From the IMG/VR virus record IMGVR_UViG_3300011116_000448, positions 3,346-67,345 of that record: 64,000 nt of DNA, one strand, 5' to 3'. Every line of letters starts with the position of its first letter. Positions within the stretch are counted from its first letter, which is position 1. This document shows positions 2,817 to 49,218 of this stretch, piece after piece. Source of the stretch: a virus. The notes beneath the pieces were generated by a model. That model worked only from the letters and a program-made list of their open reading frames with translations, was not told the DNA's origin and made no database searches. The position numbers were made by a program, and so were the translations under genes.

Positions 2817-3034
2817 AGACTGCTACACAGTGGAATAACTTCATTACTAACTCGTGGGTCAAGGATGCTCGTCGTTTGACCCACGAGCTAGCTTCAATTA
2901 CCAGACTATTTCAAAATAAACCTTTACTTACAGAAGCACAGCTAGTAGAATGTTCCATTCAATTGGAAACCCTCCGGGAACAATTGCATACAATCGAAGA
3001 AAACCTGAATATCATCCAGACCCGGGAGTATTAA
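2774..3034 (+). CDS. hypothetical coiled-coil protein
   Basis: ORF between nrdJ and DUF3310; the real start is probably near 2810-2813 after GAGGAG. Confidence 0.45.
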   Translation: MLCEPRNRGEELWLKTATQWNNFITNSWVKDARRLTHELASITRLFQNKPLLTEAQLVECSIQLETLREQLHTIEENLNIIQTREY

Positions 3035-3043
3035 ACCCCTTAC

Positions 3044-3394: not shown

Positions 3395-4163
3395 CGTATT
3401 TATTGGCTACGATGAACGTCAGGATTTGGCCTATCGTGTCTGTAAGCTTTCACTAGAGCGAGCAGCACACCCTGAAGACAAGTTGCGTATCATGCCCCTT
3501 GGACACAGGGTATTGCGCGAGGTTGGTCTGTTTAATCGTCAGTGGCGCACTATTGGTGACGGTACTCGCATTGATGACCTTGACCAGCGTCCATTCAGTA
3601 CCGATTTTGCCTTTACTCGCTTTTTAACACCCCACTACGCACGCTTCCTTGGTCTCAACGCCAGCGAACCTTGCGTTTTTGTTGACTCTGATTTTGTCTT
3701 TAATCGGGCTATTCATGAAATCCTTGATGAGGTAGACCTGAATAAACCTGTCAGTGTTGTTAAGCACAATTACAATCCAGCTAACATTGTCAAGATGGAC
3801 AACCAAGTGCAGATGACCTACAATAAAAAGCTGTGGTCTTCCTTTATGGTGTTTAACCCAAGCTTGTCTAATTGTGCACCTTCGGTGGAAGACGTTAATA
3901 CTAAAGACGGCTCATTCCTTCATCAGTTTAAGTGGCTTGCCAACGACGGTCTGATTGGCAGTCTGTATGAAGGCTGGAACTTTATTCCAGATCATTCAGA
4001 ACCTCGTGTACCATTCCATGAACTTCGCGCTATTCATTACACAGAAGGTGTCCCTCTGGTAAAGCCACGGTGTAAGTACAGCGCTATGTTTACCCACATT
4101 CTTAGTGACTTCCTTCGGGAAGCCGCACGCAACCCAGAGGAAGAGCTTTCTAATGCGCGTTAA
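3378..4163 (+). CDS. GT-A fold glycosyltransferase (GT8/CDI-like)
   Basis: VFIGYD, STDFAFTRF, VFVDSDF (DxD), VVKHNY, KMD..Q..Y.KK.WSS, HYTEG motifs. Confidence 0.88.
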   Translation: MHRPINVFIGYDERQDLAYRVCKLSLERAAHPEDKLRIMPLGHRVLREVGLFNRQWRTIGDGTRIDDLDQRPFSTDFAFTRFLTPHYARFLGLNASEPCVFVDSDFVFNRAIHEILDEVDLNKPVSVVKHNYNPANIVKMDNQVQMTYNKKLWSSFMVFNPSLSNCAPSVEDVNTKDGSFLHQFKWLANDGLIGSLYEGWNFIPDHSEPRVPFHELRAIHYTEGVPLVKPRCKYSAMFTHILSDFLREAARNPEEELSNAR

Positions 4164-12422: not shown

Positions 12423-15400
12423 TTACTCTTTGTCCCGTGTCAAGATATTCTGGTAACGACGTTCTTGTTGTGTAGGCTTTTTGATCTTTCCCGGATTCTT
12501 TTTCTGCCACAGACGTTCCTGAACGCTTGAGCGGAAACCTCTCCAGAAGTTAGAATCAAGTCTGATGCCGTTAGCTTTAGCGTATTCACGCAAATCTTTG
12601 GTGACATCCGCCCGCATCTCTCGACCCTCTTGGTATTTTTCATTGTCATCTTGAGTTGACCCCAAATACATAAGGTACTCAGCCGTTGCTACGCGCTCGG
12701 CCAAACGGGACTTCCACCCAGTAAACTCTTGGTTGGCGCGCTGCTGCATGTACAGACGTTCACGTTCTTGTGTCTTCTCAAGGGGCGTAAAGCCCGTAAG
12801 CTGACCAAGTACGTCAAACGGCCTAGTTCCATCCTCATTAGTATCTTTGAGTATTTTACCAGACTTGGTTTTCCAGTAATTTTCAGGCTCAGTAACCATT
12901 TGAGCCGTCTTAGCCACGTCCTTGCCAACCGAAGGCATAAAGGGCTGGATCTTCTCCAAAGCTGACTTGCTTGACGATCCACTGAGTACGTCAGCCGCAC
13001 CGTTCATCATTTCTACAAGGGTACGTCCGGGAACACCCGTAATCTCACCAATCTTGATTTCATCCTTCAGAAGGCCCATAAGAAGGTTTTGCCCAATAAT
13101 GTCCTGTGAAAGACGAGAACTCATGTCCAAGCCAAAGGTTGTGGACAGAGCACCCCTGCGCAAGAACTCAGGCATACCAGCGGCTTCAAGCTGCATGTTC
13201 AGGTCTACCATACGCCCATTAACCTTTTCCTCGTATTCTTCGTACAAGGTCTTCCAAAGGTCGTAGGCAGGAATACCGTTAAGCCCTGAGAAGGCCACGT
13301 AGGCACCCATTGTATATAGGCCTGCTAGGACACCCGCTGCTCCCTTTTTGGCCGTCATTTGCTCAAATAGAAGCTCTAGCATCTGCTGTGGGTAGGTCAT
13401 GAAGGGGAATGCCAACGTACCGAACAGACCACGCTGCATGGGGCCACGCCCCGTCTTGCCAAACTCAGCGTGAACAAGACGCATGTGGTAAAGAGCCATT
13501 GCGTCTTCAACGTCCATTTTGGTTTTGTTGGTGTCCCAGAAATATTGCCAATCGTAGTCCGTAGCAAGGTCTTTAATGGCCTTACGGGTAATCTCAGGGG
13601 AGTCTTTAAACATATCCCTGAAGGCAATAAATGTCGACTTACGAGTAAAGTTTTCAGTGTTGCTAACAAAGAAGCCCGCGTTGTTCTTGATGAAGTTAAA
13701 GCCCTTTTCAGCCTGTTTAGCACCGGGACCAAGGTGGCTGATATAGTCAGTGTTGATTTCCTTGGCAATAGCGTCTTCAGTCATGGACTGCCGGAAGTAG
13801 CCCGGATGAGCGTTAAAGAACTCACTGTTCTTGTCCCCCGGCTGCATCTTTACCAACTTACTGATACCCTTGCTAAGGTAGGACATGGCACTCAAAGGAT
13901 TGCCTGTGTAACCTACAAGCACACCTGCGGCTTGTGTGGGTAGGGTTGCAATCTGCAACATAGCAGTAGATAGACGGTATCCCATGGTCCAGAAGAAGTT
14001 AAAGTTGCGCAAAGCTCCGTAGTCAGTGCTTGGGTTAAGCATGTAATCTACATAGTTGTTAGCGTACTTTTTCAGTTCAGGAGCAACCTTGTCACTTAAG
14101 ACAATGTCTTTTTGAGCCGCAGCAAGTTCCATCGCTGTGGCTTTACGAGCAATAGAGTTCTTAAAGGTGTTCTTGTACGCATCCATGACGTGATCCCAAT
14201 CACGAGAGTATCCTGAAATAACAGGTTCGTCTTGAGCACGCATAAGGTATTTGCCTTTACCCTGTGCAAGGACATACCGCATGATGTGGTTCTTGGTTGA
14301 ACCTGCATCTTCGGACCAAGCTTTCATAAAGCTTTGCGGATCTTTAACCCCAGTGGCAAGCATGTGTGCCAATTCAATGTTACGCTCAAGTCCCGTAGCG
14401 TTAAGGCTCTGGATAAGCTCCATCGACAGCATACCCTTTTGGATAAGCTTGGCGGCAGAGTTGTAGGTCAACTGACCGTGAGTAAGTTCAAAGTCCTTTG
14501 GGTCGTACTTCTTGCGAAGCCCAAGCTTGTCAATCTTTTGGTCAGCGTGCTTCTTTGACGGAAGCGCACTGGTCTTAAGTCCAAGAAGATTGTCAGTGTT
14601 GTCAAGAACTTCCATGTGGACAAGATTCCCTGTCTTTCGATCCTTGACCCAAACAACGTAGTCACCGAACCGCATGTGTGGAATGTAGGCTACATCTCTG
14701 GCAAGCAAAGCTTCACTGTGCTTTAGCTGATCGTGGAATTCCTGCAGCATGTCACGGTCCCTGACGTACTTGTTACGGAACTCAGGCAGCGGGTTGTTCT
14801 TGATAAGCTTTTCAATGTTGTCAATTGTATCCTGCAAATGAAGCAACGAAGAGTCCTTACCTACGTTGTACTCCTTGCGGAAGTGCTCTAAAAGCTCGCG
14901 AGTAACAGACATGTCTTCGCGAATACCGACCTTAAAGAAGTCAGACACACCCTTGACAATGTCAGAGTCTACCTTTGAAAGAACTACGTCGGCATCATTC
15001 TCATCCTTGAACACAATACGCCCTTGAGTATCTTCCTTGATACCTTGCTTGGTGTTTCGAAGATGGTCAATAATATCGCCTGCTCGAATAATTTTATCCA
15101 TGTCCTTGTTTGCAAGATCCTTGTAGACGTAGTCAAACTGCTTTGTGAACGCAAGGTCGATGTTTGCGGCAACGTCCTTTTGCTTAACAAAAATGTTATG
15201 GACACGCCCGATGATAGGATGCTTGCGGGCCATCTTGGCTACGGAGAACAGGAAAGACATAGCCCCACCAGCGGTACCAATGTTGTTGGCTTCACTACGC
15301 AAGAATGGATCGTTGGAATCTCGTCCAGATCTTGTCTGAGGGTCTTTGAAGTTAGGCGGAGGTGAGCTTGCACCAGCTTCAGTAGCAGCTTCCTTAATCT

Positions 15401-18400
15401 CCTCAACCTTTACTTCAGCCTGTTCCTGCTTAGGTCTGTTGACCTCATCAAGGACACGATCTGCAAATACGTTGGGGCGGCGAGCCTCTGGCGGAACTTC
15501 CCTTGAGTTCTGTTCAAAGACCTCAGGACTGTCGTTGTACTCAAGAATGTCATCAAGTTTTTTGTAGCCAATGTCAGCAAACTCTTTATTCAATTGCTTG
15601 AAAGACTTTTCAAAAGCACTGAAAATCTTCTTCTGTTTGATGTCCTTGAAGTCCTTGATGTTGACGTTTAAATCGCCCTTAAGGTACTTGGCAAAGGCCA
15701 TAGCCTCCAAGTCCTCTGTACGGAAAGTACCAAGGTCTTTGGGGTTTACACCTTCCTGTGCACCATACCATTCACTGAAGAATTGCCTATTCTTGTTCAA
15801 AGCATCAATGGTCTTATCCGGAAGGAACTGCCGCATGTTCTTGTACCAAGTTGCCAACGCCTCTTCGTTAAGGTTCTTTGGTTTGTTGATGTTGAAGGCT
15901 GTGTGCAGCGAGGTCAACATGGCGTTAAACGTAGCCTTGTCCATCTCCTTACCCGAAAGCATCTTGTCAAAGCTTTGGCGGAATAGCTTGGACAAGCTAG
16001 GATGAACCTTGTTAAATGCGTTCTCAATTGTGTTGAGGAGCTTCACGCGGTTCATTACCTGCTCAGAGAACTTCTTGGTAGCCCTCATGATACGCGGCTT
16101 TTCACTGACCTTGACGTTGGCAGACATCTCAGCAAACTTCTTGAACATTTCATTCAAGGCTGGCCCAAGGTCTGGATTACGCTTAAGGAAGTCTGCGTTA
16201 CGTTCCATGGCAAGTTTGTCAACTTCGTCGTGAAGCTGGTTTAGAATCTGTTCAGACACGTCACTAAGTTTAGCTCTTTGTGGTGCTCTAGGCGTGCCTT
16301 TAAATGCCTTGGGGTCGTACCTAAATTCACCGGGCTTGGGTGAAGTATCAATAGTGTCAGCAAGCGTATCAGAGATAATAGGCTTGTTACGCTCTTTCCA
16401 GTAGCGATTGGCAATTCGACGCAGTTCATCCGTTGTCGTGTGCTTGTCTTCCAACATTCGCTTAAACAACGGAGACCTAAGAAGAGCTTCAATAACCTGA
16501 CTCTTCTTCAACTTTGGTGTAGCATTAGGTCCCGGCATGGTTGCAGCCTTGGCAAGAGCCTCTGCTGTCTGTGCGGGTTTGTATTCAAGCAAACCACGAA
16601 TAGCCATAGGATCACTTCGCATACCCGCGTAAGGACCAAAAGCTTCACCGTCAACAGGAGGTTCTTCAATAAACTTCCCACCGCGCGAAGTTACCTTATC
16701 AGGAGCCTTGGGGTAAATATCTTTAACACCAGTACTCTCGTTACGGCGCTGGATACGTACGTTTTCTTCTTGAACCTCTTTAAGCTTCTGTTTGTACTCC
16801 TTCAAAGCCTTGCGGTAGTCTCGCATGTCGGCTTCGTACTTTTTTGTAGCTTCTTTTGCACCAGCCCATTTCATTTCAGTAGAGGTAGGTGCGATAGGTT
16901 TAACAGGCTCTACTGGAAGGTCTAAGAGTTTTTGCTTAGGCACAGGCCCAGTTCTAAATACCTCAGATGGCTTTGCTTCGCTTTTAAAGTACTTACCCTT
17001 TTCAGGGATAAGAAGCCCATCAATCAATCCTGAGTTATTGAGTTCACTGCCCCATTTTTGCCCCACAGAAATACGAACTGGTGCGTGCGTGTACCCAAGC
17101 TCTTTAAGCGCCTGAAGCCTGTGATTACCTTCTCCAAGCTTGGCAGTACGAGAATCTGCACCCACGTTAACGATAAGAGGATTGTTTAGACCATTCTCCT
17201 GAATGTCCTTTTTTAACGCCTCCATTTCCTCGCGTGTCATCCGAAGTTTGTTCCCTTTGATTTTCTCAAGAAACTCAATAGGCACGTCTTCAATATATCG
17301 CGCGTAATTGTCCATGTCACTACGCTTACGTGTATTACCATCAAGGTCCTTCCAATAAGAACTTCTTTTTGGAGAACGAGGAACTCTATCCTCTCCGTAG
17401 AACGGTTGATTAATCGGAGGATTGCCGGGGCGCTTACGAATAAGTCCGTACTTGCTGGGTTTGATTACATCGTGATTAAATACAATAAATTGATCGCTTG
17501 TAGGTAGATCACTGAAAGGCATACGACCTTCCACATGTTCTTCGTATGAAGCAAAACCCTCTCTAATATCCAAAGCGTCGATATTGAGTTTTTGTAGCTT
17601 TGCCTTCATTTCGGCCATGCGCGCTCTTTGATCTGCAGCAGTGACCTTAGTACCTGCTTCATCTACACTGTCAAAATCAACAGCAAAATCTCTCATCATC
17701 TGATCTACGGCATCTTGTTTACGTGGCTTTGTTGTAGGGAATACCTGATGATCCATAGCAGTGCCATCAGGATGTACCCAAAAATCAGGATTACCTTTTT
17801 CACCACCAAAACGCGTATCGTCAAACTTGCGCATTGGTTCAGACATTCGATCTGTATAGCCGAGCATTTTAGCCAAACGCTGGGCATCTTCAAAAGTTTT
17901 AATTGTGAAGATACGCGCTGAAGGTTTAAGAAATGCCTTAATCTTTTCGGGATACGCTACGGCACGACGTGCTTCTGCATCTTGATCAAACCAGAATGAA
18001 TTAGGATTCTTTGAGAAATACGAAGAAAAATCACCAAATTCACTATAGTAATAAGCGCGTTTACCTGTCTGCGGATTAAATTCACCTGACTCATCAATAG
18101 CCTTGGCAGAATCAGGCATAGTACCGTGGTAAAGAATAATGGGTGCTCCATCATCAAAATGCGAAATAACATCCTCAGGACGTGCACCTTTTGAAGCGGC
18201 ATATTGTTTCTTTTCAGCTTCACTGCGACGTTTGTTCATCAACGTCTCTGCCAGCTTCTTACGGGGATTCTCACTAAGCATCTGGTTGGCAGCTTTGATG
18301 TTCTTGTTGATGCGCTCTTGGGCATCTGGACGCTTGTAGATTGAGCCGTACTGCTGTACGTCTTCCATCACTTTCTTGTCTACAAAGTTTTCAAAGTCTT

Positions 18401-20162
18401 CCATCACTTTCTTGCGAATCTCGTCAGGATACTTAGCACCTGCCTTATCAAGATCGCGCTGGACGTTAATACGATATAGCTTGTTGATCATATCGTCGGA
18501 GAAGTTACGGACAACTGTATCCTGATAACCAAACTGGTCAGTCAAAGCTGCCGCCTTGGTCAAGATCTTTTCGTCGTTGGAGTGTACCTGCGGCTGGTCG
18601 TCAATGTCTTTGTACATCACGCCATTAGGTGTACGCTTAAGGAAAGACTCACGCGAACGAACAAAGCTAGCCTTACGGGCTGCTTCAATAAGATCCCTGT
18701 CGCTTGGGGGTCTATTTAGATTTGTTTCAAAGTGGTTATAAAGATCACTGAGACCGTCGCGCTCCTCACCCTTCTTATCCTTGTACTTGATATTGCGAAG
18801 GTACTCAGCAGCCTGTACACGATCCGTAATACCGTAGTCGGCGTTAGGATCACGAATGATACCGCTTACCGGAGGAGGAAGAGCCGCCTGAGGTGTAGTC
18901 TGGTCGTACCCATAAATGATGTCTTCCTTCATGGTAGACGCAGCTTCGCTTACGGGACGCTCTGGACGAGGGTCTCCAAGGAAAGACGAATCAATAGGCT
19001 GGACAGGTGTCTTGGGTTTTGGCTGGTAACGATAGCCTTTGTAAAGACCAAAAGGCACACCTACAAGAGTACCCATGACCCCGGCATTGAAGTACTCGGC
19101 CTTGGCTTCGTCATCCAAAAGAGGCATATCGGCGTTCATGCGGGACAGGGCAGAAGTACCCATACCTACAAAAGCATTAGTACCTGCCACGTCAGCCATA
19201 TTGCCGAGGAGGCGTGTACTCATCTTGGACCCAAGGTCTACACCCCACTTTTCAAGGGTGTTAAGGACGGGTCCAGCAAAAATAATGGAGTCCACAGGAA
19301 TGGCCTGCAGTCCCGCTGCTACGGTCCCTAGGGTAGCTGCCTTGGTCCAATCAATGTGATCCTTGGGGTTCTCTACCCCCTGCTCTTTAAGGGCCTGAAC
19401 CTGCCTGTCAGCGAACTGGGCGATGGTTACGGGCGCAGTGACACCTGCAGCCCCAAAGAACGACCCTAGACGGGCAGCAGCGGTACCAGCCTTCATACCC
19501 GCTGATCCTGCCGCAAGGTAACCACCAGCACCACCACCAGCCAACGCTAGGCCCATGTAGGGCGCTCCTGCACCTATGGTCTGAAGGGCAAAGTCGTACA
19601 GCTTACCTTGGTCCCAAGCTGACTGAACGTCAGGGACAGTAAACTGACCGTAATTCTTTTGATAATCATTCTTAAGTTGGTCGGCGTATTCGTGCCATTC
19701 CTTGCCAAGGTTCTCCATACCCACTCCCTCAAGACTATAGGCTAGGGCACTGGAAAGCTCACTGGGCATACTGTAAAGGGTGGCACCTTTGGCTGCACCC
19801 CAAATACCGGGAGAGTTGTGGTCCCAGATGGCCTCCAGAACCTCCTCAGGCGTCTTGTCAGCGGGGGCATTGTACCGCTTACCGTCACCCGCAAACTCAT
19901 AGATAATCGTGTTAGGGTCCTTGCTAGAAGGTCCTACGGGCTTAAGAATCTGGTCAGGGGAATCTACTCCAAAGAACTGCTTGGAGAAAGCTTGGGGTTC
20001 ACCCGAAGAGGAACTACCTACTGCTGGCTCTTTACTTCTCTCGTTGAGTACCCCAAGGATTGATTCGTTAAAAGGGTCTGGATTCTGCCTCTGCGGGAAC
20101 GTAGCCTGCATGGCATTATCGACAACCCCTTGTGCAAAGGGACTCAACGGATCTGTAGCCAT
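12423..20162 (-). CDS. giant virion ejection/polyvalent protein containing ADP-ribosyltransferase-like and ParB/Srx-like domains
   Basis: 2579 aa, GGAGG SD, last large gene of the virion arm; Gly/Ala-rich hydrophobic N-terminal region; LYHGT...YFS...QFIVF (ART-like); DI.ENGL.NPL.V...EGNHRLQALKELG...PV (ParB-like). Confidence 0.75.
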   Translation of the reverse strand: MATDPLSPFAQGVVDNAMQATFPQRQNPDPFNESILGVLNERSKEPAVGSSSSGEPQAFSKQFFGVDSPDQILKPVGPSSKDPNTIIYEFAGDGKRYNAPADKTPEEVLEAIWDHNSPGIWGAAKGATLYSMPSELSSALAYSLEGVGMENLGKEWHEYADQLKNDYQKNYGQFTVPDVQSAWDQGKLYDFALQTIGAGAPYMGLALAGGGAGGYLAAGSAGMKAGTAAARLGSFFGAAGVTAPVTIAQFADRQVQALKEQGVENPKDHIDWTKAATLGTVAAGLQAIPVDSIIFAGPVLNTLEKWGVDLGSKMSTRLLGNMADVAGTNAFVGMGTSALSRMNADMPLLDDEAKAEYFNAGVMGTLVGVPFGLYKGYRYQPKPKTPVQPIDSSFLGDPRPERPVSEAASTMKEDIIYGYDQTTPQAALPPPVSGIIRDPNADYGITDRVQAAEYLRNIKYKDKKGEERDGLSDLYNHFETNLNRPPSDRDLIEAARKASFVRSRESFLKRTPNGVMYKDIDDQPQVHSNDEKILTKAAALTDQFGYQDTVVRNFSDDMINKLYRINVQRDLDKAGAKYPDEIRKKVMEDFENFVDKKVMEDVQQYGSIYKRPDAQERINKNIKAANQMLSENPRKKLAETLMNKRRSEAEKKQYAASKGARPEDVISHFDDGAPIILYHGTMPDSAKAIDESGEFNPQTGKRAYYYSEFGDFSSYFSKNPNSFWFDQDAEARRAVAYPEKIKAFLKPSARIFTIKTFEDAQRLAKMLGYTDRMSEPMRKFDDTRFGGEKGNPDFWVHPDGTAMDHQVFPTTKPRKQDAVDQMMRDFAVDFDSVDEAGTKVTAADQRARMAEMKAKLQKLNIDALDIREGFASYEEHVEGRMPFSDLPTSDQFIVFNHDVIKPSKYGLIRKRPGNPPINQPFYGEDRVPRSPKRSSYWKDLDGNTRKRSDMDNYARYIEDVPIEFLEKIKGNKLRMTREEMEALKKDIQENGLNNPLIVNVGADSRTAKLGEGNHRLQALKELGYTHAPVRISVGQKWGSELNNSGLIDGLLIPEKGKYFKSEAKPSEVFRTGPVPKQKLLDLPVEPVKPIAPTSTEMKWAGAKEATKKYEADMRDYRKALKEYKQKLKEVQEENVRIQRRNESTGVKDIYPKAPDKVTSRGGKFIEEPPVDGEAFGPYAGMRSDPMAIRGLLEYKPAQTAEALAKAATMPGPNATPKLKKSQVIEALLRSPLFKRMLEDKHTTTDELRRIANRYWKERNKPIISDTLADTIDTSPKPGEFRYDPKAFKGTPRAPQRAKLSDVSEQILNQLHDEVDKLAMERNADFLKRNPDLGPALNEMFKKFAEMSANVKVSEKPRIMRATKKFSEQVMNRVKLLNTIENAFNKVHPSLSKLFRQSFDKMLSGKEMDKATFNAMLTSLHTAFNINKPKNLNEEALATWYKNMRQFLPDKTIDALNKNRQFFSEWYGAQEGVNPKDLGTFRTEDLEAMAFAKYLKGDLNVNIKDFKDIKQKKIFSAFEKSFKQLNKEFADIGYKKLDDILEYNDSPEVFEQNSREVPPEARRPNVFADRVLDEVNRPKQEQAEVKVEEIKEAATEAGASSPPPNFKDPQTRSGRDSNDPFLRSEANNIGTAGGAMSFLFSVAKMARKHPIIGRVHNIFVKQKDVAANIDLAFTKQFDYVYKDLANKDMDKIIRAGDIIDHLRNTKQGIKEDTQGRIVFKDENDADVVLSKVDSDIVKGVSDFFKVGIREDMSVTRELLEHFRKEYNVGKDSSLLHLQDTIDNIEKLIKNNPLPEFRNKYVRDRDMLQEFHDQLKHSEALLARDVAYIPHMRFGDYVVWVKDRKTGNLVHMEVLDNTDNLLGLKTSALPSKKHADQKIDKLGLRKKYDPKDFELTHGQLTYNSAAKLIQKGMLSMELIQSLNATGLERNIELAHMLATGVKDPQSFMKAWSEDAGSTKNHIMRYVLAQGKGKYLMRAQDEPVISGYSRDWDHVMDAYKNTFKNSIARKATAMELAAAQKDIVLSDKVAPELKKYANNYVDYMLNPSTDYGALRNFNFFWTMGYRLSTAMLQIATLPTQAAGVLVGYTGNPLSAMSYLSKGISKLVKMQPGDKNSEFFNAHPGYFRQSMTEDAIAKEINTDYISHLGPGAKQAEKGFNFIKNNAGFFVSNTENFTRKSTFIAFRDMFKDSPEITRKAIKDLATDYDWQYFWDTNKTKMDVEDAMALYHMRLVHAEFGKTGRGPMQRGLFGTLAFPFMTYPQQMLELLFEQMTAKKGAAGVLAGLYTMGAYVAFSGLNGIPAYDLWKTLYEEYEEKVNGRMVDLNMQLEAAGMPEFLRRGALSTTFGLDMSSRLSQDIIGQNLLMGLLKDEIKIGEITGVPGRTLVEMMNGAADVLSGSSSKSALEKIQPFMPSVGKDVAKTAQMVTEPENYWKTKSGKILKDTNEDGTRPFDVLGQLTGFTPLEKTQERERLYMQQRANQEFTGWKSRLAERVATAEYLMYLGSTQDDNEKYQEGREMRADVTKDLREYAKANGIRLDSNFWRGFRSSVQERLWQKKNPGKIKKPTQQERRYQNILTRDKE

Positions 20163-30726: not shown

Positions 30727-31419
30727 TTAAAATAGCCAGTAGAACCTAATTTCACCACCAGCACCTCTTCCGCCTCCAAAAGGAAGACCAAATTCAACAC
30801 TGCCTCCACTTCCTCCTGCGCCGGGAAGGTCTCCTACAATTCCAGTTTGAGTAGTAGGGAGTGCGCCTCCTGCACCATATAAAGGACTATCTCCTCCAGC
30901 ACCCCCTGTTACTCCTGAAGCAGTACCTCCTGTATTTCCAGCAATACGTCCATTTTGAGCAGAACCAAGAGTTTCTTTACCTGAACCTGCTGCACCTCCT
31001 GTACCAGCGGCACCACCTGCACCCCCTGCACCTGTTGTAGCAACACCCCCTGACCCACCTGCCGCTGAAATAGTACCTGTTGTAATCCCGCCTAATGTCA
31101 TACTAGTAATAGAAGCCGCAGTACCATTATTGCCATTTGCATTGGCTGCACCTGCAGCACCTCCATTACCTACAGAGAATGTAATAATTTTACCCCAGTC
31201 ATCAGGACGTATTTCAAAAGATGCAATAGCTTGTGCCCCCGAACCACCACCGCCGCCGCCGTTTGTTGATCCGTTTGTTCCTGCACCACCTCCTCCATCA
31301 CCTTGCGTAACAATAGTTACATAAATAGCTCCGTAAGGAACTGTTGTAGTGCCGGAAGTATCATAAACTTCAAAACGCGGCCCGCGTAGACTGCGCGGAA
31401 TGTGACAGGGACTAGCCAT
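30727..31419 (-). CDS. glycine-rich structural protein
   Basis: VP.GA..V....G.GGGG, VG.GG..G, PG.GG.GG, G.GA.G glycine-rich domain; ATG overlaps the upstream stop. Confidence 0.7.
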   Translation of the reverse strand: MASPCHIPRSLRGPRFEVYDTSGTTTVPYGAIYVTIVTQGDGGGGAGTNGSTNGGGGGGSGAQAIASFEIRPDDWGKIITFSVGNGGAAGAANANGNNGTAASITSMTLGGITTGTISAAGGSGGVATTGAGGAGGAAGTGGAAGSGKETLGSAQNGRIAGNTGGTASGVTGGAGGDSPLYGAGGALPTTQTGIVGDLPGAGGSGGSVEFGLPFGGGRGAGGEIRFYWLF

Positions 31420-34400
31420 TAAAGCCCTCAATTTGTACAGTAAAGATTTCACCACTAATTGGAGTGAACGCAATACGTGTTTCAAGAAGTCCTTGAATGG
31501 ATACTTGTGTAGCACTAAGATTTACAAGCATTTCACCTGTACGTGCAGGTGCACCCCAATAAACCTGAGTAGATACTGCACCACTAGTACGAAGACCGGG
31601 TGCACAAGCAATAGCTACAAGATCAATATAACCCATCCAGTTACTTACAGGAGAAGCGTTTAGGAAGCCATTATCGCCATTAGCTACAGATACCCTGTTA
31701 TTGGTGTTAAACAGATGAAGACGAATAGCGCCCGCAATGTTGTGTTGTCCTGTCGCTAGACCACCGCCTGTACGGAACATACGGGCACCACGGATATAAG
31801 CAATACCGCCGTTCTGTCCAGTAGAACGGGCCACACGGAATTTCAAAGGCTTAACAGCAGTATTAGTAGTGCTGTTGGCAATCAAGTCACCTGCGTTACC
31901 CGGCGCAGCCGTTGCACCAGCAGCGTAAGCAGTAGTGTCTGCAGGGCGTGTAAAGGTATCCTGCGACATAAACGTGCGAGTACTAATGAATACAGCACCA
32001 GAGACGTTTGTTTTAATTGTCCTTGCGTTGTTCTGAGTGTCACTGCCTGCAATCTGTACTGCTTGGTTGCTTACTGCACCACCAATAGAAGCAAGCACAG
32101 TACCGCCGCCACCTGCTCCGCCACCGGGGGCCGTATTGCTGACGTGAACAATAAGAGCACCCCCCGTAGTTGTTAACAGACCACGAGCATTCGTTCCATC
32201 GGTTCCCAGCATCGGGTAACCTTGGTTGGTAACAGCAGCACCTACGGTCTGAAGCATACTGGCACCTGCGGCAGGAAGTGCGTTACTGATATGCACAACA
32301 AGAGCGCCACCTGTAGTAGTCAGAAGCCCTCTTGCGTTAGTACCGTCGGTTCCCAGCATTGGGTAGCCTTGGTTGGTGACGGCTGCACCAACCGTCTGGG
32401 TCATTGTAGAGCCACCACCTCCAGCAAAAGTACCTTCAATAGATACCTTTACAATAGAGTTGATGGAAGAAATTGCTCCGATGTTCCAAGTGCCAGACTG
32501 CGTAACAGCGTGAGTAGCTACGTTTACGGTGTTAGCAATAGACACCGGAATGTTCAGTCCGTTTGGACTAATAGACACAGCGCCGATAAGATTAGTACCT
32601 GCGTTGAGTCCTACGTTCCAAGTACCGGACTGTGTAGCAGCCACAAGACCCGCTACGGAAACCTTGTCGCTAACTGAAACTGTCCAAGCGCCCGATTGTG
32701 TAACTGCGTGTGTTGCCACGTTGACTGTGTTGGCAATGGACACAGGGATATTTAGACCATTGGGGCTGATCGAAACATCGGCAATATTAGCAATACTAAC
32801 AGAGCCAATGATTGTTCCTCTTACCGATACAGCACCAATAAGATTAGTACCTGCCGCAAGACCTACGTTAGGTGTGCCTGCAATGGACACAGGAACGTTG
32901 AATGTAGGAGGAGCAATACTGACAGGCCAATTGGCAGTTCCATCAGGAACAACTGAAACAATACCTGCAACAGATACCGCAGGCTGAAGGTTGCTTACGT
33001 GAACAACCATAGCTCCTGCAGCAGTAGTCAAAAGCCTACGCGCACTGGTGCCATCAGAACCCAACATTGGGTAGCCTTCAGTTGTGACCGCAGCACCTAC
33101 GGTCTGAGTCATTGAACTACCAGCAGCACCACCGGGCGCAGAGTTAGACACATGAACAACCAGAGCGCCACCCGTAGTTGTCAATAAGCGCCTAGCGTTG
33201 GTTCCATCAGAGCCCAACATTGGGTAGCCTTCGGTCGTAACTGCAGCACCTACGGTCTGTAGCATTGAAATACCACTTGCTGCAGGCTGTGCGTTGGAGA
33301 CGTGAACAACGAGAGCACCGCCCGTTGTAGTCAGCAGTCTACGGGCAAGAGAACCATCCGAACCCAACATAGGGTAGCCCTCGGTCGTAACTGCAGCACC
33401 TACAGTTTGAGTCATTGAGCCACCTGTAATAGTTCCAGCAATTTTTAGGCGACCGTTGGCGTCAAGCTGCAAAGGTGCCATTACTCCGCTGGCAAATGAG
33501 CCATTTCCTGTGGAGACTTCACCACCAACAGGCAAACCATGCGCGGGAAGTGCAGCCAAAAAATTAGCAGCAGGAGCAATTGTCACAATACCGTTTACAG
33601 AAACACGGCCTTGTGCAACACTTACACCAATATTAGCTGTGTTAGCTATTGATACTCCAATATTGCCAGTAACAGTTCCAATATTTACGGTAGGGGTTCC
33701 TGCGATAGACACTGGAACATTGAATGTCGGAGGAGCAATACTGACAGGCCAGTTGTTAACACCATCCGGCTGAACCGACACAATTTGTCGTACTGAAACA
33801 GCTCCAATAAGGTTAGTGCCTGCGTTTAGGCCAACGTTCCACGTACCCGATTGTGTAACAGGATGCACACTTACTGGCAAATTGTAGGCAGGCGGAGCAA
33901 GTGAAACAGGCACGTTAAATGTCGGCGGTGCAATAGATACCGGCCAGTTTGCTGTACCGTCAGGTTGCACTGAAACAATTTGTCGAACACTTACTGCACC
34001 AATAAGGTTGGTTCCCGCGTTCAATCCTACGTTCCAAGTTCCGGACTGCGTAACAGGATGTACTGAAACAGGCAAATTGTAAGCAGGCGGAGCCAATGAA
34101 ACCGGAATGTTTAGACCATTTGGGCTAATAGAGACAGCACCAACAAGATTTGAGCCTGCGTTTAGTCCAACATTCCACGTTCCAGATTGCGTAACTGGAT
34201 GGACACTTACAGGCAAGTTATACGCAGGCGGTGCCAATGAAACAGGGATATTTAGGCCGTTGGGGCTAATTGACACAGATCCAATAAGATTAGTACCTGC
34301 AGGCAAGCCATCTCGTTGGGCAACTACAAGAGCACCCATTCCTGACGCAACAGCCTGTCCACCAGACACTACTGTTGCAGTGTTATTCGCAGAGTCTGTT

Positions 34401-34498
34401 GGAATGCTTTGATTAAAGTGTACGCTTGTTGCGTCTTCAATTGTATGAAGAACCACATTAGCGTTAGTTGCGTCTTTAATCGTAATATTGTTTGACAT
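31412..34498 (-). CDS. repeat-rich fibre protein (Val-Ser-rich)
   Basis: 1028 aa; mosaic of VSISPNGLNIP / VSLAPPAYNLP / VTQSGTWNVGLNAG units and 5 copies of MxQTVGAAVTxxGYPMLGxDG..AR.LLTT..GA..VH[VI]SN. Confidence 0.7.
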   Translation of the reverse strand: MSNNITIKDATNANVVLHTIEDATSVHFNQSIPTDSANNTATVVSGGQAVASGMGALVVAQRDGLPAGTNLIGSVSISPNGLNIPVSLAPPAYNLPVSVHPVTQSGTWNVGLNAGSNLVGAVSISPNGLNIPVSLAPPAYNLPVSVHPVTQSGTWNVGLNAGTNLIGAVSVRQIVSVQPDGTANWPVSIAPPTFNVPVSLAPPAYNLPVSVHPVTQSGTWNVGLNAGTNLIGAVSVRQIVSVQPDGVNNWPVSIAPPTFNVPVSIAGTPTVNIGTVTGNIGVSIANTANIGVSVAQGRVSVNGIVTIAPAANFLAALPAHGLPVGGEVSTGNGSFASGVMAPLQLDANGRLKIAGTITGGSMTQTVGAAVTTEGYPMLGSDGSLARRLLTTTGGALVVHVSNAQPAASGISMLQTVGAAVTTEGYPMLGSDGTNARRLLTTTGGALVVHVSNSAPGGAAGSSMTQTVGAAVTTEGYPMLGSDGTSARRLLTTAAGAMVVHVSNLQPAVSVAGIVSVVPDGTANWPVSIAPPTFNVPVSIAGTPNVGLAAGTNLIGAVSVRGTIIGSVSIANIADVSISPNGLNIPVSIANTVNVATHAVTQSGAWTVSVSDKVSVAGLVAATQSGTWNVGLNAGTNLIGAVSISPNGLNIPVSIANTVNVATHAVTQSGTWNIGAISSINSIVKVSIEGTFAGGGGSTMTQTVGAAVTNQGYPMLGTDGTNARGLLTTTGGALVVHISNALPAAGASMLQTVGAAVTNQGYPMLGTDGTNARGLLTTTGGALIVHVSNTAPGGGAGGGGTVLASIGGAVSNQAVQIAGSDTQNNARTIKTNVSGAVFISTRTFMSQDTFTRPADTTAYAAGATAAPGNAGDLIANSTTNTAVKPLKFRVARSTGQNGGIAYIRGARMFRTGGGLATGQHNIAGAIRLHLFNTNNRVSVANGDNGFLNASPVSNWMGYIDLVAIACAPGLRTSGAVSTQVYWGAPARTGEMLVNLSATQVSIQGLLETRIAFTPISGEIFTVQIEGFNG
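32140..34300 (-). repeat. intragenic protein-level tandem repeats of the fibre gene
   Basis: Near-identical peptide repeats encoded by synonymously diverged DNA; boundaries approximate. Confidence 0.8.
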
Positions 34499-40883: not shown

Positions 40884-41333
40884 TTACTTCACTCCAAACA
40901 TCGGGTTAATATCGCCCGGATTTTCAAGTTTCATGAGAATAAGTTCGTCTGCAAGCAAGACAAAAGACACGCCCTTTACCATAAGCTTTGTACCCTGATG
41001 CTTGCCCCAAACAACGTAGTCGCCCACCTTGCACCACGGCTCGCGGTAGCGCCCGTGCGGGAAGTACTTGCCGTCGGAAGGCTTGGCGTTTGGATCTGTG
41101 TAGCACATAGGACCCATTGCCTTAACCTGACCTACGTTGGTCAAATACTTAACGTCTTCGGTAAAGGAGGTAGGGAGCATGATTGAACCAACCTTTGCTT
41201 CGGGTTCAATGGGGCGGATAAGGATATTCCAACCCGTAACTTCTGGAAGTGGATCGGGGTCCGGAACGTTATTCGGGGAAACCCAATCAGTCTTGTTACC
41301 GTCGTATTTCATTAGCTGACCACTAAGCGACAT
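40884..41333 (-). CDS. groES: phage co-chaperonin GroES (Cpn10)
   Basis: P..TGW.ILI.P, G.V.AMGP.CY, PWCKVGD.V...K..G, LL.D.E motifs. Confidence 0.85.
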   Translation of the reverse strand: MSLSGQLMKYDGNKTDWVSPNNVPDPDPLPEVTGWNILIRPIEPEAKVGSIMLPTSFTEDVKYLTNVGQVKAMGPMCYTDPNAKPSDGKYFPHGRYREPWCKVGDYVVWGKHQGTKLMVKGVSFVLLADELILMKLENPGDINPMFGVK

Positions 41334-44192: not shown

Positions 44193-46004
44193 TTAACCGC
44201 CTGCTGCTTGTTTCCAATAGGTCCGTCGGGACTTCTTGTACATGTCGTCGTCTTCGTCTACCAAATCTTCACTCATGTGATTTTGGTTGCTTAGAGCCAT
44301 GACGTTAGACCGAAGGTGAATGATTGCTTGGGTCATCGTATCTACAAGGTCATCGCTAGCCCCAAAGGGGAATTCAAGAGCGTCGCTCATAAGCATAGTA
44401 CTGAAGTGTTGAGACTCGGGAACCCAAATACGACCATTCCTGAAATACGGGGTAACTTGATGAGCCCTCATTTCCTTGTCGCCCCACTTTTGGGGTTCAA
44501 AGGGGACTACCGGGTAACCCATTAACTGCAGTTCAGGGATCAAACTTTGGCCCGAAGCCTTGTTTTCAATAAGAATTATATCAGGCTTGTAGTACTCATT
44601 CATTTCAATTACTTGCTTAAGAAGCTCTGGGTACTCCCATCGGTTCTTGTCACACTCAATCAAAATCAAGTGAGGGACAAAGAACTCTTGACCTTTTGCC
44701 GTCAAGTTGCGTTGGTGGAATACCCCCCACACCGAGTAAGCACTGTAGTCAGCACTTGTCTTTGAACTGTAGGCTGTGTCCAGCGAAAGGACAATGTATT
44801 CAATCTCTGGAGGTTTACTGGACCGCCAAAGGTTAAAGTCTGACTCCTTGAAGATACTGCCCTCCTCCGGAATGGGCTGCTGCATGTACAGGGCTGACCA
44901 CTTAGCCGCAGTCATTGAAGGGTCGGCGCGCCTTTCTTCAAGGAACTCAAGGGTCTGGAATTCAGGCCAGAAAGACCCCTTTTCCGGAAGCCCAAGCAAC
45001 TTGCTGGCCTTGGTATCCAAGATGGCCGGAATGGTAACAATCTTCCAAGGTCGCTTGGTCTTGCTGTCGTTGACTTCAAGGAACCCTGAAAGGTCTTCAT
45101 TGTGCCATCGGGTGTTGACAATGATTTCAGACCCGTTGGGTAGGAGTCGGGTACGCAAGCCCGGGACGTACCAGTGGTTGATCTTACGACGCTCCACGGG
45201 GCTGTAGGCGGTCTGTTCAGAGACCACGTCGTCGCAGATCGAAATGTGGGCACGACGGCCTGCAATCTGGGTACCTACACCTGCACCATAGTACTTGCCA
45301 CCTTGGGTCAATTCCCACCGCCCAGCGGCTCTTGAATCGCTTTTGATGACTACGTGGGGAAAGACCCTAAGGTACTCTTCGGTACGCATAAGGTCTCGAA
45401 TAGGCCTACCTGCGTTGTCTTCAACAAACTGTGTACCGTGACCAATGTGAAGGATATTCCATTTTGGATGTCTTCCAAGGCACCAAGCCACGAACAAATT
45501 AATGAGCTTAGATTTCATCGCACCGGGAGGACAAAAGACCATAAGGCGCTCCCGTGTGCCCTTTACGGTAGCCTCTTCCACCTTTTGCATTTGCTGGGCA
45601 ATGACCCTAATGTGGGCTCCATCTATAAACCCTTCGGGGAGTGTGTAGGGGGCCAAGTACCGCACAAACATGTAGAAGTTGGTCTGGGCAAACTTGATAA
45701 TTCGATTGGCTAGGAAGTTGGTCAGGAAGTCCTTGTTAGGGTCGGAATCAGGCAACAGGCTAATGGCTTCAGTGATCTTTTTGTACAGGTCATCAAATTC
45801 CTTGTAGGTTAGGTCGTCCTTTGCTTTTCCGTCCACCACCTTTTTGAGGACAAGATCAGATGAAAGGCCGATGTCGACTTTAGCTACTTCGACCTCTCGC
45901 TGTAATATCTTGGGGTCTACGGAGGGTGCTTCCTCCTCCGGTTTATCCAAGTAACCCAGCAAACTTGCTAGGGCTTGCTCTTTTTCTTTGTCGTTATCGG
46001 TCAC
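44193..46004 (-). CDS. terL: terminase large subunit
   Basis: Walker A-like PPGAMKS, IAGRRAH..ICDD, TRWH.EDL.G, W.ALYMQQP, SLDTA, DYSA, IE.KASG, FP.G..DD.VD nuclease motifs. Confidence 0.95.
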   Translation of the reverse strand: MTDNDKEKEQALASLLGYLDKPEEEAPSVDPKILQREVEVAKVDIGLSSDLVLKKVVDGKAKDDLTYKEFDDLYKKITEAISLLPDSDPNKDFLTNFLANRIIKFAQTNFYMFVRYLAPYTLPEGFIDGAHIRVIAQQMQKVEEATVKGTRERLMVFCPPGAMKSKLINLFVAWCLGRHPKWNILHIGHGTQFVEDNAGRPIRDLMRTEEYLRVFPHVVIKSDSRAAGRWELTQGGKYYGAGVGTQIAGRRAHISICDDVVSEQTAYSPVERRKINHWYVPGLRTRLLPNGSEIIVNTRWHNEDLSGFLEVNDSKTKRPWKIVTIPAILDTKASKLLGLPEKGSFWPEFQTLEFLEERRADPSMTAAKWSALYMQQPIPEEGSIFKESDFNLWRSSKPPEIEYIVLSLDTAYSSKTSADYSAYSVWGVFHQRNLTAKGQEFFVPHLILIECDKNRWEYPELLKQVIEMNEYYKPDIILIENKASGQSLIPELQLMGYPVVPFEPQKWGDKEMRAHQVTPYFRNGRIWVPESQHFSTMLMSDALEFPFGASDDLVDTMTQAIIHLRSNVMALSNQNHMSEDLVDEDDDMYKKSRRTYWKQAAGG

Positions 46005-46278: not shown

Positions 46279-46845
46279 CTATGTAGTACCCGGGTTAGCC
46301 CTCGACAAGATCGAGATTACCTTTTCCAAAGCTTCATCCTTTCCACCTTCCTCCACTGGGGCTTTCGTACCGCGAGAATCTTTCTCTAGCTGCTCCCCAA
46401 TAACTCCCTTTGTTACCTTGGCCTTGTCAATCTCCTTTTGAAGCAACTCACAGGCCTTAATAGCAGCTTGGTAGTTCTTTTCACTCAAGGCGTGGTTATA
46501 AACTTCCCTGATCTTTTGAATAACCTCAATGGTATCCAGACCTACTGCTTCAATTCGCTTCTTCATGGCAATAGCCACAGCCTGCTGGACCTTGGGCATC
46601 TTGAGCATCGTGTAACCAACAATCTCAGGGTTACCGCTTTTTGATCCAGCCATGCGAGCAGCTTGTGCTGCACTAGCCGTTTTCACGTAAGCTTCCACAA
46701 ACCTGATCTGCAAGGGGGTCATCGTAGTCAGCAATTCCCGAAGGACCTTGTACTCCTTCTGCTCGTCCCGGTTAAGCAGCTTCAACTCTTCCTTGTCAAT
46801 AGCAATGGCTACCGCATTGTGGGGTTCGTTAAGATCGTCTTCCAT
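46279..46845 (-). CDS. terS: terminase small subunit
   Basis: T..Q.RFVEAY.....A.QAA..AG HTH; L..P.V...; A.KA.ELL; upstream of TerL. Confidence 0.85.
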   Translation of the reverse strand: MEDDLNEPHNAVAIAIDKEELKLLNRDEQKEYKVLRELLTTMTPLQIRFVEAYVKTASAAQAARMAGSKSGNPEIVGYTMLKMPKVQQAVAIAMKKRIEAVGLDTIEVIQKIREVYNHALSEKNYQAAIKACELLQKEIDKAKVTKGVIGEQLEKDSRGTKAPVEEGGKDEALEKVISILSRANPGTT

Positions 46846-46869
46846 AAATTTTTTCCCTTTAGTACACAA

Positions 46870-48030
46870 AAACCCATTGACTTATCCACGGATTTTCTTA
46901 AAGCGTTCCTTTTTAGTATAAATTACACCCCCTATGTATTCCCCCAATTTTTATAGGGGGGTCAAATTTGAAATATCTAGGACTAATTAAGGATTTTGGA
47001 GGGGGGGTCAACTAACCCCCAAGGGGCCCGGCCCTGTTTTTCCCCCTCCCCGTCCCTCCTGAGCAACCCCCCGAGGGCTAGTGGTAACTGACTAGTAGTA
47101 ACCTAGAAGTAGTAGCAGGTTCACACTAGCGGAGTAACCATGCTGGGAGTAGGGCTACCTAGTAACCCAGCGGGACAAGGGGGGATATACCCCTAGCTCC
47201 CGTGGGGGAATAGGTCCGACCCCCCGGACATTACAGAATTGTCATGGTTCCACCCGGCGTGAGGTGCGACACTTTGTCACATGGACAGTACGGCTTAGTA
47301 TTGATCAAGAACATTGTGTGAACCGTTGGTAGTGTGGAGTTATCGCTAGTGTCCCCCGGCCTCTGGGAGGGGGGCAGGAGGGGCGGAAGGGGGGCAAGGT
47401 CCAGTCGTACCCCCGGAACTACCCCCCTCTGGACGGCCTTCCCTGAGCCTCTGGAAGGCTAGTGTTACCTTCACACTACCGAAGCCCTTGGGGCGGAACA
47501 ATACCTGAACAGTTCAGGGTCCGGTAATGAACCTCACGCCCTTGTAACAATCTGTAACATCTTGTTACTTGCCACCCCTAGGGGGATGTGATGAGGTCCA
47601 GCTTGGTCTATCCCCTGAGAGGTAGACCCGTAGGACCGGAACCTCGTATATAGCCCCCTGCCACGGGGGGAACCCGGACCAAGAGGCGCAGGCTACCCCT
47701 TGCCCCCTTTGCCCCCCTAGCGGGGGTACCCTTGGCCCCCTACGGGGGGTTAGGGGTACCCTACGGGGGGCGGAGATACGGGGGGCCGCGTAAACGGACC
47801 AGCGGGGGCAACCTGCCCGCTGGTTAGGCCAAAGGTGATGACCCACGTTGCTAGTCCGGGTGCACATTGGATGCGCCTTCACTGGTAAAACAAGCGAAGG
47901 CTTGGCGACACTCGCAAGAGTGTAAAGGGGGCAGAACGTGGCAATCTTTTCTCAGTTGTTCCCAAGCAAACAATGCACCCAGCTACATGCAGAGACACTG
48001 CATGGTTAGTGCATTGTTACTTGGGAGTAA
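46870..48030. other. non-coding divergence region between late and early arms (probable genome end/packaging and early-promoter region)
   Basis: About 1.15 kb without credible ORFs; G/C homopolymer runs, short repeats, many hairpins; strand switch. Confidence 0.7.
47581..47950 (+). ncRNA. candidate structured RNA / early leader
   Basis: Dense stems with cUACGg (47740-47745) and GCAA (47808-47811, 47914-47917) tetraloops and G-U pairs on the + strand. Confidence 0.45.
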
Positions 48031-48035
48031 TGATT

Positions 48036-48656
48036 ATGACTAACGCAAACAACACGAACGCCCCCGCCCTTGACCTGACAGTTGAGGGCAAGCTTATCCG
48101 CAAGATTGCTGGTAATGCTTCGGCTGCTATCTCTGAGGCAAACACGTGTGCAATGCGATACGTGGACTTCGGGCTTGCTACTGGTAATCTCGATTTGCTG
48201 CGTATGCTGCGCGATGCTTTGACCCACAAATCATTGCAGGCTAAACTTGACTCATGGGTAAAGCGTGTTGCCCCTGTTAAGCGCAAGGGTAAGAAGCATC
48301 CAAGCGGCGAAACTACATACAGCTATGTGAAAGACAAGAAGCGCAGCCGTAAAGAAGGTTGGCAGATTGTCGATCAGGTGGCTTATTCGACGGGACCTAT
48401 GAACTACAAAGCCCCGAAGAAGGATGCCCCCGACATGACACTGGAAGCCATACTGAAAATGGTGGCAGGTTCACTTGACCGGGTAGCCTCAAAGATTGAC
48501 GACGAAGCTAGCGACGTTGCCTTGCGCTTTAGGCTTGCGCTTGAAGACTTGGCTAATGAAGCCGAAGAGAAACTGGATGCACTTACAAAGAAAGATGCAC
48601 CCGCCGCGACTAATGAAGAAGTGGTGACCTTAATCAAGGCCGCTGCTAACGGTTAA
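48036..48656 (+). CDS. first early gene, hypothetical
   Basis: GGAG SD, 206 aa, followed by a strong hairpin. Confidence 0.75.
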   Translation: MTNANNTNAPALDLTVEGKLIRKIAGNASAAISEANTCAMRYVDFGLATGNLDLLRMLRDALTHKSLQAKLDSWVKRVAPVKRKGKKHPSGETTYSYVKDKKRSRKEGWQIVDQVAYSTGPMNYKAPKKDAPDMTLEAILKMVAGSLDRVASKIDDEASDVALRFRLALEDLANEAEEKLDALTKKDAPAATNEEVVTLIKAAANG

Positions 48657-48663
48657 CCCTTCA

Positions 48664-48693
48664 CACCCCCTAGGCATCACACCCTAGGGGGTG
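48664..48693 (+). other. 11-bp GC hairpin (mRNA stabiliser/processing site)
   Basis: CACCCCCTAGG/CCTAGGGGGTG; no U-tract. Confidence 0.6.
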
Positions 48694-48728
48694 CACTGGT
48701 TTAACCCCCATGCAATGGAGCACCCAGC

Positions 48729-49046
48729 ATGAGCAACCTAGTATCCCCCGTTTATGACGGGGGCGTATCGCATAACCGGGTACCGGGTAAAATGCCCCCC
48801 GTGACCATGCCCCCCGCGTGGGGCTTGGTGCGCACCCTTAACACAATGCTACGTGGTAGCGAGTATGACGTGCCTGACGCCACATGGTGGCCCTTGGTCC
48901 GGCAATCGTGCTCAGTCCTTAACAAGCATCTTGACCGGGCCTACCGTACCAGCGGGGGCACACCCTGCCCGGCCTTTGTGACTGTGTTCGTCATTACCAA
49001 GGGGGATAACCCCCGCAAGATTCTCCGCGTGGTGCGCGTCCTGTAA
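48729..49046 (+). CDS. hypothetical early protein
   Basis: GGAG SD plus ATG; terminator follows. Confidence 0.6.
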   Translation: MSNLVSPVYDGGVSHNRVPGKMPPVTMPPAWGLVRTLNTMLRGSEYDVPDATWWPLVRQSCSVLNKHLDRAYRTSGGTPCPAFVTVFVITKGDNPRKILRVVRVL

Positions 49047-49078
49047 TGGGGCGCGTGCTTTAGCGCGTAGCGCGCTGA

Positions 49079-49105
49079 CCGCCCGCAAGGGCGGGCTATT
49101 TTTTT
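49079..49105 (+). terminator. intrinsic terminator
   Basis: CCGCCC-GCAA-GGGCGG then GCTATTTTTTT. Confidence 0.8.
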
Positions 49106-49218
49106 GTGCGCGTTTCATACACCCCTCGCCTCGCGGCGGGGGCTTGATGATAGGACGCCCGCAGCTAAGGAGTAGCGCAAGCTACGACGCACAAGCGAAG
49201 TAGCATAAGGCAAAGGAG

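Follow-up and report, generated by a model that had tools for sequence, protein, structure and literature searches.

The DNA considered here is a stretch of 64,000 nucleotides (nt) (the window; positions 3,346 to 67,345 of IMG/VR record IMGVR_UViG_3300011116_000448), and the element in question is a 261-nt, GC-rich segment at positions 47690–47950 in which several stable hairpins lie side by side, upstream of a rightward gene here called gene 1. The source is an uncultured freshwater phage, from a group without a cultured close relative, whose 67.3-kb contig is rated as ~70% complete and is mostly covered by the window. Leftward structural and packaging genes span ~11.8 kb up to terS, the gene for the small terminase subunit, and rightward genes start at the ATG at 48036. 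Rightward replication genes (endonuclease I and ribonucleotide reductase) stand at the start of the window, and a family-A DNA polymerase is encoded at the start of the contig. A first-pass annotation, made from the sequence alone, had placed the segment upstream of the first early gene, and this location holds: the segment precedes the first plus-strand gene after the non-coding gap that follows terS, in an operon with RNA-level signals. The features of the gap and of the segment are as follows.

44193–46004, minus strand: terL, after terS (phrog_38, E 5.9e-106)
46279–46869, minus strand: terS, with which the leftward packaging and structural module opens (PF03592, E 2.6e-14; phrog_51)
46870–48035, no strand assigned: the gap, 1.17 kb of GC-rich, non-coding DNA that separates terS from the divergent gene 1; recognized by its GC content, its G and C runs, and open reading frames (ORFs) without Pfam matches
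47690–47950, plus strand: multi-hairpin, GC-rich segment, for which no relative gives an alignment
47723–47762, plus strand: hairpin H1, 18 pairs with a C(UACG)G loop, nested in C-run/G-run helices over 47702–47786 (fold compared with shuffled sequences)
47741–47785, plus strand: three direct copies of TACGGGGGG, spaced 21 and 15 nt from start to start
47797–47825, plus strand: hairpin H2, 10 pairs (z −3.21)
47843–47941, plus strand: three-way junction closed by CCACGUU/AACGUGG (z −2.67 on the plus strand, −2.75 on the minus strand)
47908–47923, plus strand: GCAA-looped hairpin ACACUC-GCAA-GAGUGU inside the junction, with a perfect 6-bp stem

The gap is set off by its composition, with a GC content of 0.55–0.675 as against about 0.45–0.50 in the flanking genes, and 14 of the window's 21 runs of six G or six C residues fall in 46956–47785. 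A hidden coding region was considered and rejected, as no ORF in the gap matches Pfam; one minus-strand ORF of 105 amino acids (aa) at 47565–47882 is rich in Pro, Arg, and Gly. A search for tRNA and tmRNA genes found neither. The phage collection contained no relative by DNA similarity, the best protein match of TerL among deposited phages was 38% identical, and two phages with TerL matches of this kind do not usefully share the succession of terS, gap, and early genes.

Folding of the segment and its strand bias

On the plus strand, the segment folds at −145.2 kcal/mol (z −6.45 relative to shuffled sequences), and on the minus strand at −126.3 kcal/mol (z −4.84); none of the 200 shuffles folded as well on either strand. 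The hairpins, the three copies of TACGGGGGG, and the junction described in the first-pass annotation are all present, in a sequence far more stable than its shuffles. Moreover, the structure is the stronger on the strand of the early genes, which counts in favor of an untranslated leader that acts as RNA. H1 shares this bias, with −38.7 kcal/mol (z −4.70) as the plus strand and −26.2 kcal/mol (z −2.55) as the minus strand; by our reading of the sequence, it has three G·U pairs that become A·C mismatches on the opposite strand. The 91-nt nested fold around it reaches −70.2 kcal/mol (z −4.61). When both strands of the window were scanned in stretches of 46 nt, 54 places were found at −20 kcal/mol or better; the interval 47164–49156 holds 14 of these, and H1 is the strongest of all (−36.9). 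This cluster of strong hairpins, running from 47164 to a terminator at ~49100, covers one putative transcription unit and extends beyond the gap alone, again as a leader would have it.

The three-way junction is the minimum-energy fold of 47840–47947. Of the helices originally drawn for it, the closing helix CCACGUU/AACGUGG and the GCAA hairpin were recovered; GCCUUC/GAAGGC is an alternative pairing, the optimum preferring CAAGC-GAAG-GCUUG instead. The sequence itself can be taken as free of assembly artefact, since run X2, from a second study, contains a 225-nt contig identical to 47727–47951, with 0 differences. Assembled contigs from four sequencing runs were identical to the window wherever they covered it.

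Gene 1, its leader, and the related loci

Relatives were sought in six scans of viral contigs, two of metagenomes, and one of genome contigs. The scans based on TerS and on gene 1 yielded ten related contigs, among which L012 and L007 alone span the gap and a third, L002, reaches the equivalent of ~47554. Both L012 (the closest relative of full length; TerS 72% and gene 1 protein 37% identical) and L007 (47–49% and 32%, respectively) keep the layout of terS, 1.2–1.5 kb of GC-rich non-coding DNA, and a gene 1 homolog. Three further loci, with 43% identity to a 170-aa protein, had no similarity to the gap. The features that bear on the leader, in the window and in these two relatives, are listed here; an equal-position segment is the 261 nt at offset −346 to −86 from the gene 1 ATG.

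47960–48026, plus strand: compound hairpin whose 3′ arm pairs four of the five bases of the Shine-Dalgarno sequence GGGAG (48023–48027); −34 kcal/mol, z −5.95
48036–48656, plus strand: gene 1, encoding a 206-aa protein of unknown function without a Pfam or PHROG family
48665–48692, plus strand: hairpin in the spacer after gene 1, kept in L012 (fold and alignment)
49081–49106, plus strand: intrinsic terminator, a GC stem followed by T7, that ends the first short early unit (gene 1 and ORF 2)
L012 2794–2875 and L007 2472–2560, minus strand: analogs of the Shine-Dalgarno hairpin at the same place before gene 1
L012 1789–1768 and L007 1678–1650, early strand: terminator counterparts after gene 1 or gene 2
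L007, equal-position segment: z −4.19 on the early-gene strand, −1.77 on the other
L012, equal-position segment: z −0.25 on the early-gene strand, −0.41 on the other

Clear RNA-level signals lie beside the segment. In the window, L012, and L007 alike, a compound hairpin of 65–85 nt is formed within the 100 nt that precede the start codon of gene 1, and its 3′ arm lies over the Shine-Dalgarno sequence (z −5.28 in the window, −5.12 in L012, and −8.53 in L007, where the other strand gives −3.65). When the sequences upstream of 47 plus-strand ORF starts in the window are compared, the lowest z is that of gene 1 (−5.70), followed by that of gene 2 (−4.39), against a median of −0.30 for the 46 starts other than gene 1. 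In the window, the hairpin is self-contained and lies just outside the segment. It is an imperfect duplex that overlaps the Shine-Dalgarno sequence of the first gene and recurs in relatives, as in leaders of the ribosome-site-occluding or RNase III type. The protein of gene 1 itself falls only into unnamed viral clusters of the protein atlas, and its AlphaFold model (pLDDT 49.3) is too poor for a structure search.

Downstream of gene 1, the spacer at 48657–48728 is 76% identical to L012 2117–2200, versus 37% identity or no relationship between the flanking proteins, and by our reading of the alignment one stem pair of its hairpin is changed on both sides, from U-A to C-G, between the window and L012. 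Both copies of this spacer have repeats containing GTTAAC on their flanks. All three loci have a canonical intrinsic terminator behind gene 1 or gene 2, and its position after so short a first unit suggests a step of read-through or re-initiation before the remaining early genes. The L012 terminator is a C5-UUCG-G5 hairpin, and stems of this make-up are therefore used at the RNA level in the lineage. Near terS of another related contig (L004, ~190–230), 25 nt are identical to the start of the early terminator region of the window (49058–49106) and are followed by a GC stem and a T-run peculiar to that contig, as if a terminator module had been transferred from one position to another.

The segment itself can be compared with its relatives by position. 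L007 agrees with the window, in that its equal-position segment is structured and biased to the early-gene strand, and a sliding scan of L007 2460–3059 gave the lower z on the early-gene strand in 12 of 13 windows; both results speak for a leader. The explanation that we put forward, tentatively and short of calling it probable, is that the first early operon has a long, GC-rich 5′ untranslated leader dense in hairpins, of which the segment forms the upstream part, specific to the lineage and evolving fast, and that the segment acts on the RNA. Transcription would start within the conserved half of the gap (46957–47527) or a short way beyond it, and the transcript would run through 47690–47950 and then through the Shine-Dalgarno-burying hairpin. 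The stable C5–6/G5–6 hairpins may in that case serve as generic protective or processing structures of the RNA that block exonucleases, act as substrates of a double-strand RNase, or tune the opening of the Shine-Dalgarno hairpin; they would not form a specific fold for the binding of a ligand or polymerase. Loss of similarity in such a leader is to be expected, because identity between the window and L012 is only 37% for the gene 1 protein, as against 72% for TerS. The earlier argument from tetraloops and G·U pairs to selection at the RNA level is upheld insofar as H1 folds much better on the early-gene strand; the segment aligns with no relative in which covariation could be measured. These conclusions are drawn from three loci, thermodynamic predictions, and position.

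Several observations weigh against a leader of this kind. The optimal structure accounts for only 0.0011 of the ensemble of the 261-nt segment, whose fold is thus ambiguous, with many alternative pairings arising from its many C-runs and G-runs. H2, the three-way junction, and the Shine-Dalgarno hairpin are about equally stable on both strands, and RNAalifold returned 0 pairs for the three Shine-Dalgarno hairpins, whose sequences do not align. Beyond ~47527 there is no homology by blastn, and a MAFFT alignment with L012 is not meaningful. Over its equal-position segment, L012 is no more structured than its shuffles (z values near zero on both strands, as listed). Furthermore, the only plus-strand sigma-70-like site in the gap, at 47274–47301, has 9 of 12 matches and is no better than chance (2 such sites found versus 1.3 expected), and the scan reported none on the early-gene strand of L012 or L007. 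A repeat array in L007, described below, extends into its equal-position segment and points to DNA-level sites there, and the segment of the window is likewise built of direct repeats: three C-run units, three copies of TACGGGGGG, and two of GGGGTACCC. For completeness, L012 does have strong structure elsewhere in its own gap, no 10-mer is common to the segment and either L012 or L007, and no dispersed phage-promoter consensus was present among the 20 largest of the 58 direct-repeat families in the window.

Possible DNA-level signals and repeats in the gap

The conserved half of the gap is of a different character, and its features are the following.

46947–47130, no strand assigned: conserved boxes next to terS, namely ATTTT-N-G6-7-T at 46947–46965 and 46993–47011, a C-rich block, and CTAGTRGTA / CACACTAG
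47262–47527, no strand assigned: second conserved block, conserved in L002 and L012, with an operator-like palindrome, the sigma-70-like site, inverted arms, and a hairpin at 47504–47518

The terS-proximal half, 46957–47527, is 70–77% identical to L012 and L002 and matches other partial contigs at up to 85% over short stretches. The boxes nearest terS are nearly invariant in the six sequences aligned. The two-box ATTTT-N-G6-7-T motif and CTAGTRGTA are both unique in the window, and two similar boxes are visible in L007. The inverted arms of the second block (repeat I1) are 44 nt long, at 47328–47371 and 47437–47480, and enclose a G-rich block. L007 has in place of the window-type boxes an array of GTGTCCCC that spans 2782–3641 of its gap: 14 copies occur in that record versus 0.30 expected. 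The gap holds 12 of these, most of which share one orientation and a spacing of 18–24 nt, and one copy (2782–2789) lies inside the equal-position region. Judged from their sequence, the conserved boxes and the GTGTCCCC array are candidate binding sites for terminase or another protein, and the turnover from one to the other fits a joint change of the putative sites and their binding protein, for example TerS. A further motif, GGGGCAR, is enriched in all three gaps (6 of 19 copies in the window, 5 of 9 in L012, and 4 of 7 in L007), an enrichment inseparable from their richness in G-runs.

The repeats of the segment itself are equally distinctive. TACGGGGGG starts at 47741, 47762, and 47777, three times within 45 nt, and these are three of its four copies in the window, where 0.33 would be expected in 64 kb and none of 100 shuffles reached four. 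GGGGTACCC, with two copies in the segment, contains a palindrome, so that its direct copies also pair with each other. Tandem units are present as well (D3, 22 nt at 82%; D9, 18 nt at 83%; D5, 10 nt three times). A make-up of direct repeats fits DNA-level sites or the expansion of quasi-palindromes equally well. The 5′ arm of H2 has a 16-nt direct copy, 94% identical, 1150 nt downstream inside ORF 2 (47795–47810 versus 48945–48960).

It is conceivable, therefore, that the segment consists of DNA-level signals, either protein-binding sites or extrudable cruciforms of a control region by terS, with an incidental RNA fold; the region might be one of packaging recognition or a genome end, or a site for replication or partition. 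This is possible, although we think it unlikely. The adjacency of gap and terS speaks for it, as do the unique boxes of the conserved half, their exchange for GTGTCCCC in L007, as expected if sites co-evolve with a binding protein, and the direct repeats of the segment. Eight of the ten related contigs, moreover, end inside the gap (5 of 6 in one scan and 3 of 4 in another). Against this, the recognizable boxes lie in the conserved half and the segment in the non-conserved half, and the three G·U pairs of H1, which mismatch on the other strand, would make for a poor cruciform. The contig breaks also differ in position (window equivalents ~47107, 47192, 47240, and 47554), so that they define no genome end, and three of the broken contigs are only 1.3–1.9 kb long; an assembly failure in GC-rich hairpin DNA fits them as well as a physical end does. 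A replication origin was rejected: the gap has no DnaA-box-like cluster and holds just 1 of the window’s 29 one-mismatch sites.

Recognition regions of terminases (cos/pac) lie beside terS. The gap resembles them in being directly upstream of terS and in having repeat boxes that are conserved along with TerS, but the boxes are in 46947–47527 and not in 47690–47950, which is unconserved. A second precedent at the DNA level is offered by phage N4, where, in the part of the account drawn on here, promoters of the virion RNA polymerase have a conserved sequence from −18 to +1 with a 5–7-bp stem and a 3-nt loop (PMC4496689). Small GC-rich DNA hairpins on the early-gene side, with structural genes on the opposite strand, are common to both, but those of the window, unlike the N4 promoters as so described (PMC4496689), share no conserved sequence. 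The gap has five perfect hairpins with stems of at least 6 bp, and two of these have 3-nt loops (47504–47518 and 47554–47568) with unrelated sequences. A virion or T7-type RNA polymerase was sought with PHROGs, Pfam, and a PDB sequence search (queried with virion proteins of 2579 and 1600 aa), and none was found in the ~70% of the genome recovered, which would count against hairpins that act as DNA only as far as that part of the genome reaches. PF00940 was absent from G000 and from the L007 record; the control genomes also matched nothing.

The same repeats admit a third explanation, in which the segment is a functionless by-product: a quasi-palindromic stretch of low complexity, generated by slippage or template switching between C-runs and G-runs and tolerated in a spacer that needs only a certain length or GC content. 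At 47408–47427, in the alignable half, the window reads C5...C6, L002 reads G5...G5, and L012 reads G6...C6. Such flips in run polarity among relatives are as expected from template switching in quasi-palindromes, and they favor this explanation together with the tandem units, the ambiguous fold, the missing conservation, and the unremarkable fold of L012 at the same offset. We nevertheless consider it improbable. A non-coding GC content of 0.65–0.675 in a phage of ~47% GC, kept in three loci, argues for selection on some property; the strand bias is found in both the window and L007; and two loops of the window, C(UACG)G and C(GCAA)G, are of the types that give RNA hairpins special stability.

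Known RNA families and comparable phage leaders

The first-pass annotation could not assign the segment to a known class, and the searches bear this out: at the gathering threshold, Rfam gave 0 matches over the whole window, and membership of a known family was rejected. In a permissive search of 46800–48200, the best match reached 27.7 bits against a threshold of 49 and was a generic hairpin match, the remaining ones being to microRNA-precursor models far below threshold. A scan of 46500–48500 found no intrinsic terminator or attenuator on the plus strand inside 47690–47950, where H1 is followed by UUAGGGG. There is, then, neither a conserved aptamer fold nor a terminator-like site in the segment of the kind that a riboswitch would need.

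The more specific proposal had been that of a discrete non-coding RNA, such as a put-like antiterminator, a riboswitch-like sensor, or an anti-defense decoy. The put RNA of phage HK022, in the portion of the description consulted, is ~70 nt long, has two stem-loops arranged as a V, resembles its other copies in sequence, sits downstream of an early promoter, and makes the polymerase read through terminators that follow (PMC9378689). The segment is like it in having stem-loops upstream of terminators, with no protein-family match needed, and unlike it in being ~260 nt long, unconserved in close relatives, and without a defined two-stem unit, insofar as that partial description goes (PMC9378689). 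H1 (40 nt) and H2 (29 nt), for their part, are 34 nt apart in an ambiguous fold. A structured leader followed by one or two small genes and a strong terminator in all three loci would provide an antiterminator with a target, the stable and adjacent stem-loops are suitably placed 86–346 nt upstream of gene 1, and no known family claims the region. Neither a sequence nor a fold is conserved in relatives, however, and the put features so described (PMC9378689) have no counterpart common to the three loci. The segment also contains no alternative of terminator and anti-terminator and shows no sign of a ligand pocket or a conserved junction. With L012 unalignable and unstructured at this offset (z −0.25) and no terminator-like site present, the proposal is unsupported, and a discrete regulatory RNA must be regarded as very doubtful. 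A bolder variant can be entertained, if only as a long shot, in which a rapidly diversifying multi-hairpin RNA at the start of the first early transcript would act in cis as a protein-independent, put-like antiterminator that carries transcription past the terminator after gene 1 or gene 2, with versions specific to each sub-lineage.

Two known phage leaders offer parallels for the structured early-operon leader that we favor. T7-type early operons have a long untranslated leader at the left end, in which an RNase III hairpin immediately precedes the first early gene. Likewise, ~1 kb of non-coding DNA in the window separates the packaging end from the first early gene, the long imperfect hairpin at 47960–48026 stands directly before that gene, and short repeat arrays lie beside the packaging side. 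The window differs in the orientation of its terminase genes, which point away from the early genes, and in its stems, which are GC-rich and built of C-runs and G-runs. In the pL-nutL-N-tL1 unit of phage lambda, a hairpin of the N leader covers the ribosome site of N. Here, too, a structured leader, a small basic early protein, and a strong terminator follow one another, with the Shine-Dalgarno sequence buried in a hairpin; unlike in lambda, gene 1 resembles no known family.

On present evidence, the segment does not represent a new class of RNA; it is a further, unconserved case of a feature already known, the structured untranslated region within the early control region of a phage. If transcribed, it would exemplify the control of an early operon by stacked, stable RNA hairpins in a phage group that has no cultured close relative. 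If it works as DNA instead, it would mark the packaging or entry end of the genome and be useful in annotating such contigs. The more solid and reusable result is the Shine-Dalgarno-burying hairpin and the short, terminator-closed first unit common to three related phages, a layout that provides a testable model for the timing of early expression in the lineage.

Finally, the leftward module has several features of its own. The 2579-aa virion-module protein used in the polymerase search (12423–20162, minus strand) has a ParB-like nuclease or methyltransferase-like stretch at residues 945–1035, and the 1600-aa protein encoded after it matches a DNA-ejection protein family; from their sequences, both may be injected. 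The gene at 31412–34498 (minus strand) encodes a 1028-aa protein and contains several internal repeat families of 116–147 nt, pointing to a putative repeat-domain tail or fiber protein. A GroES-like (Cpn10) gene at 40884–41333 (minus strand) lies between portal-region and head genes, and a co-chaperonin occupies the corresponding place in Synechococcus phage MinM2, a distant relative.

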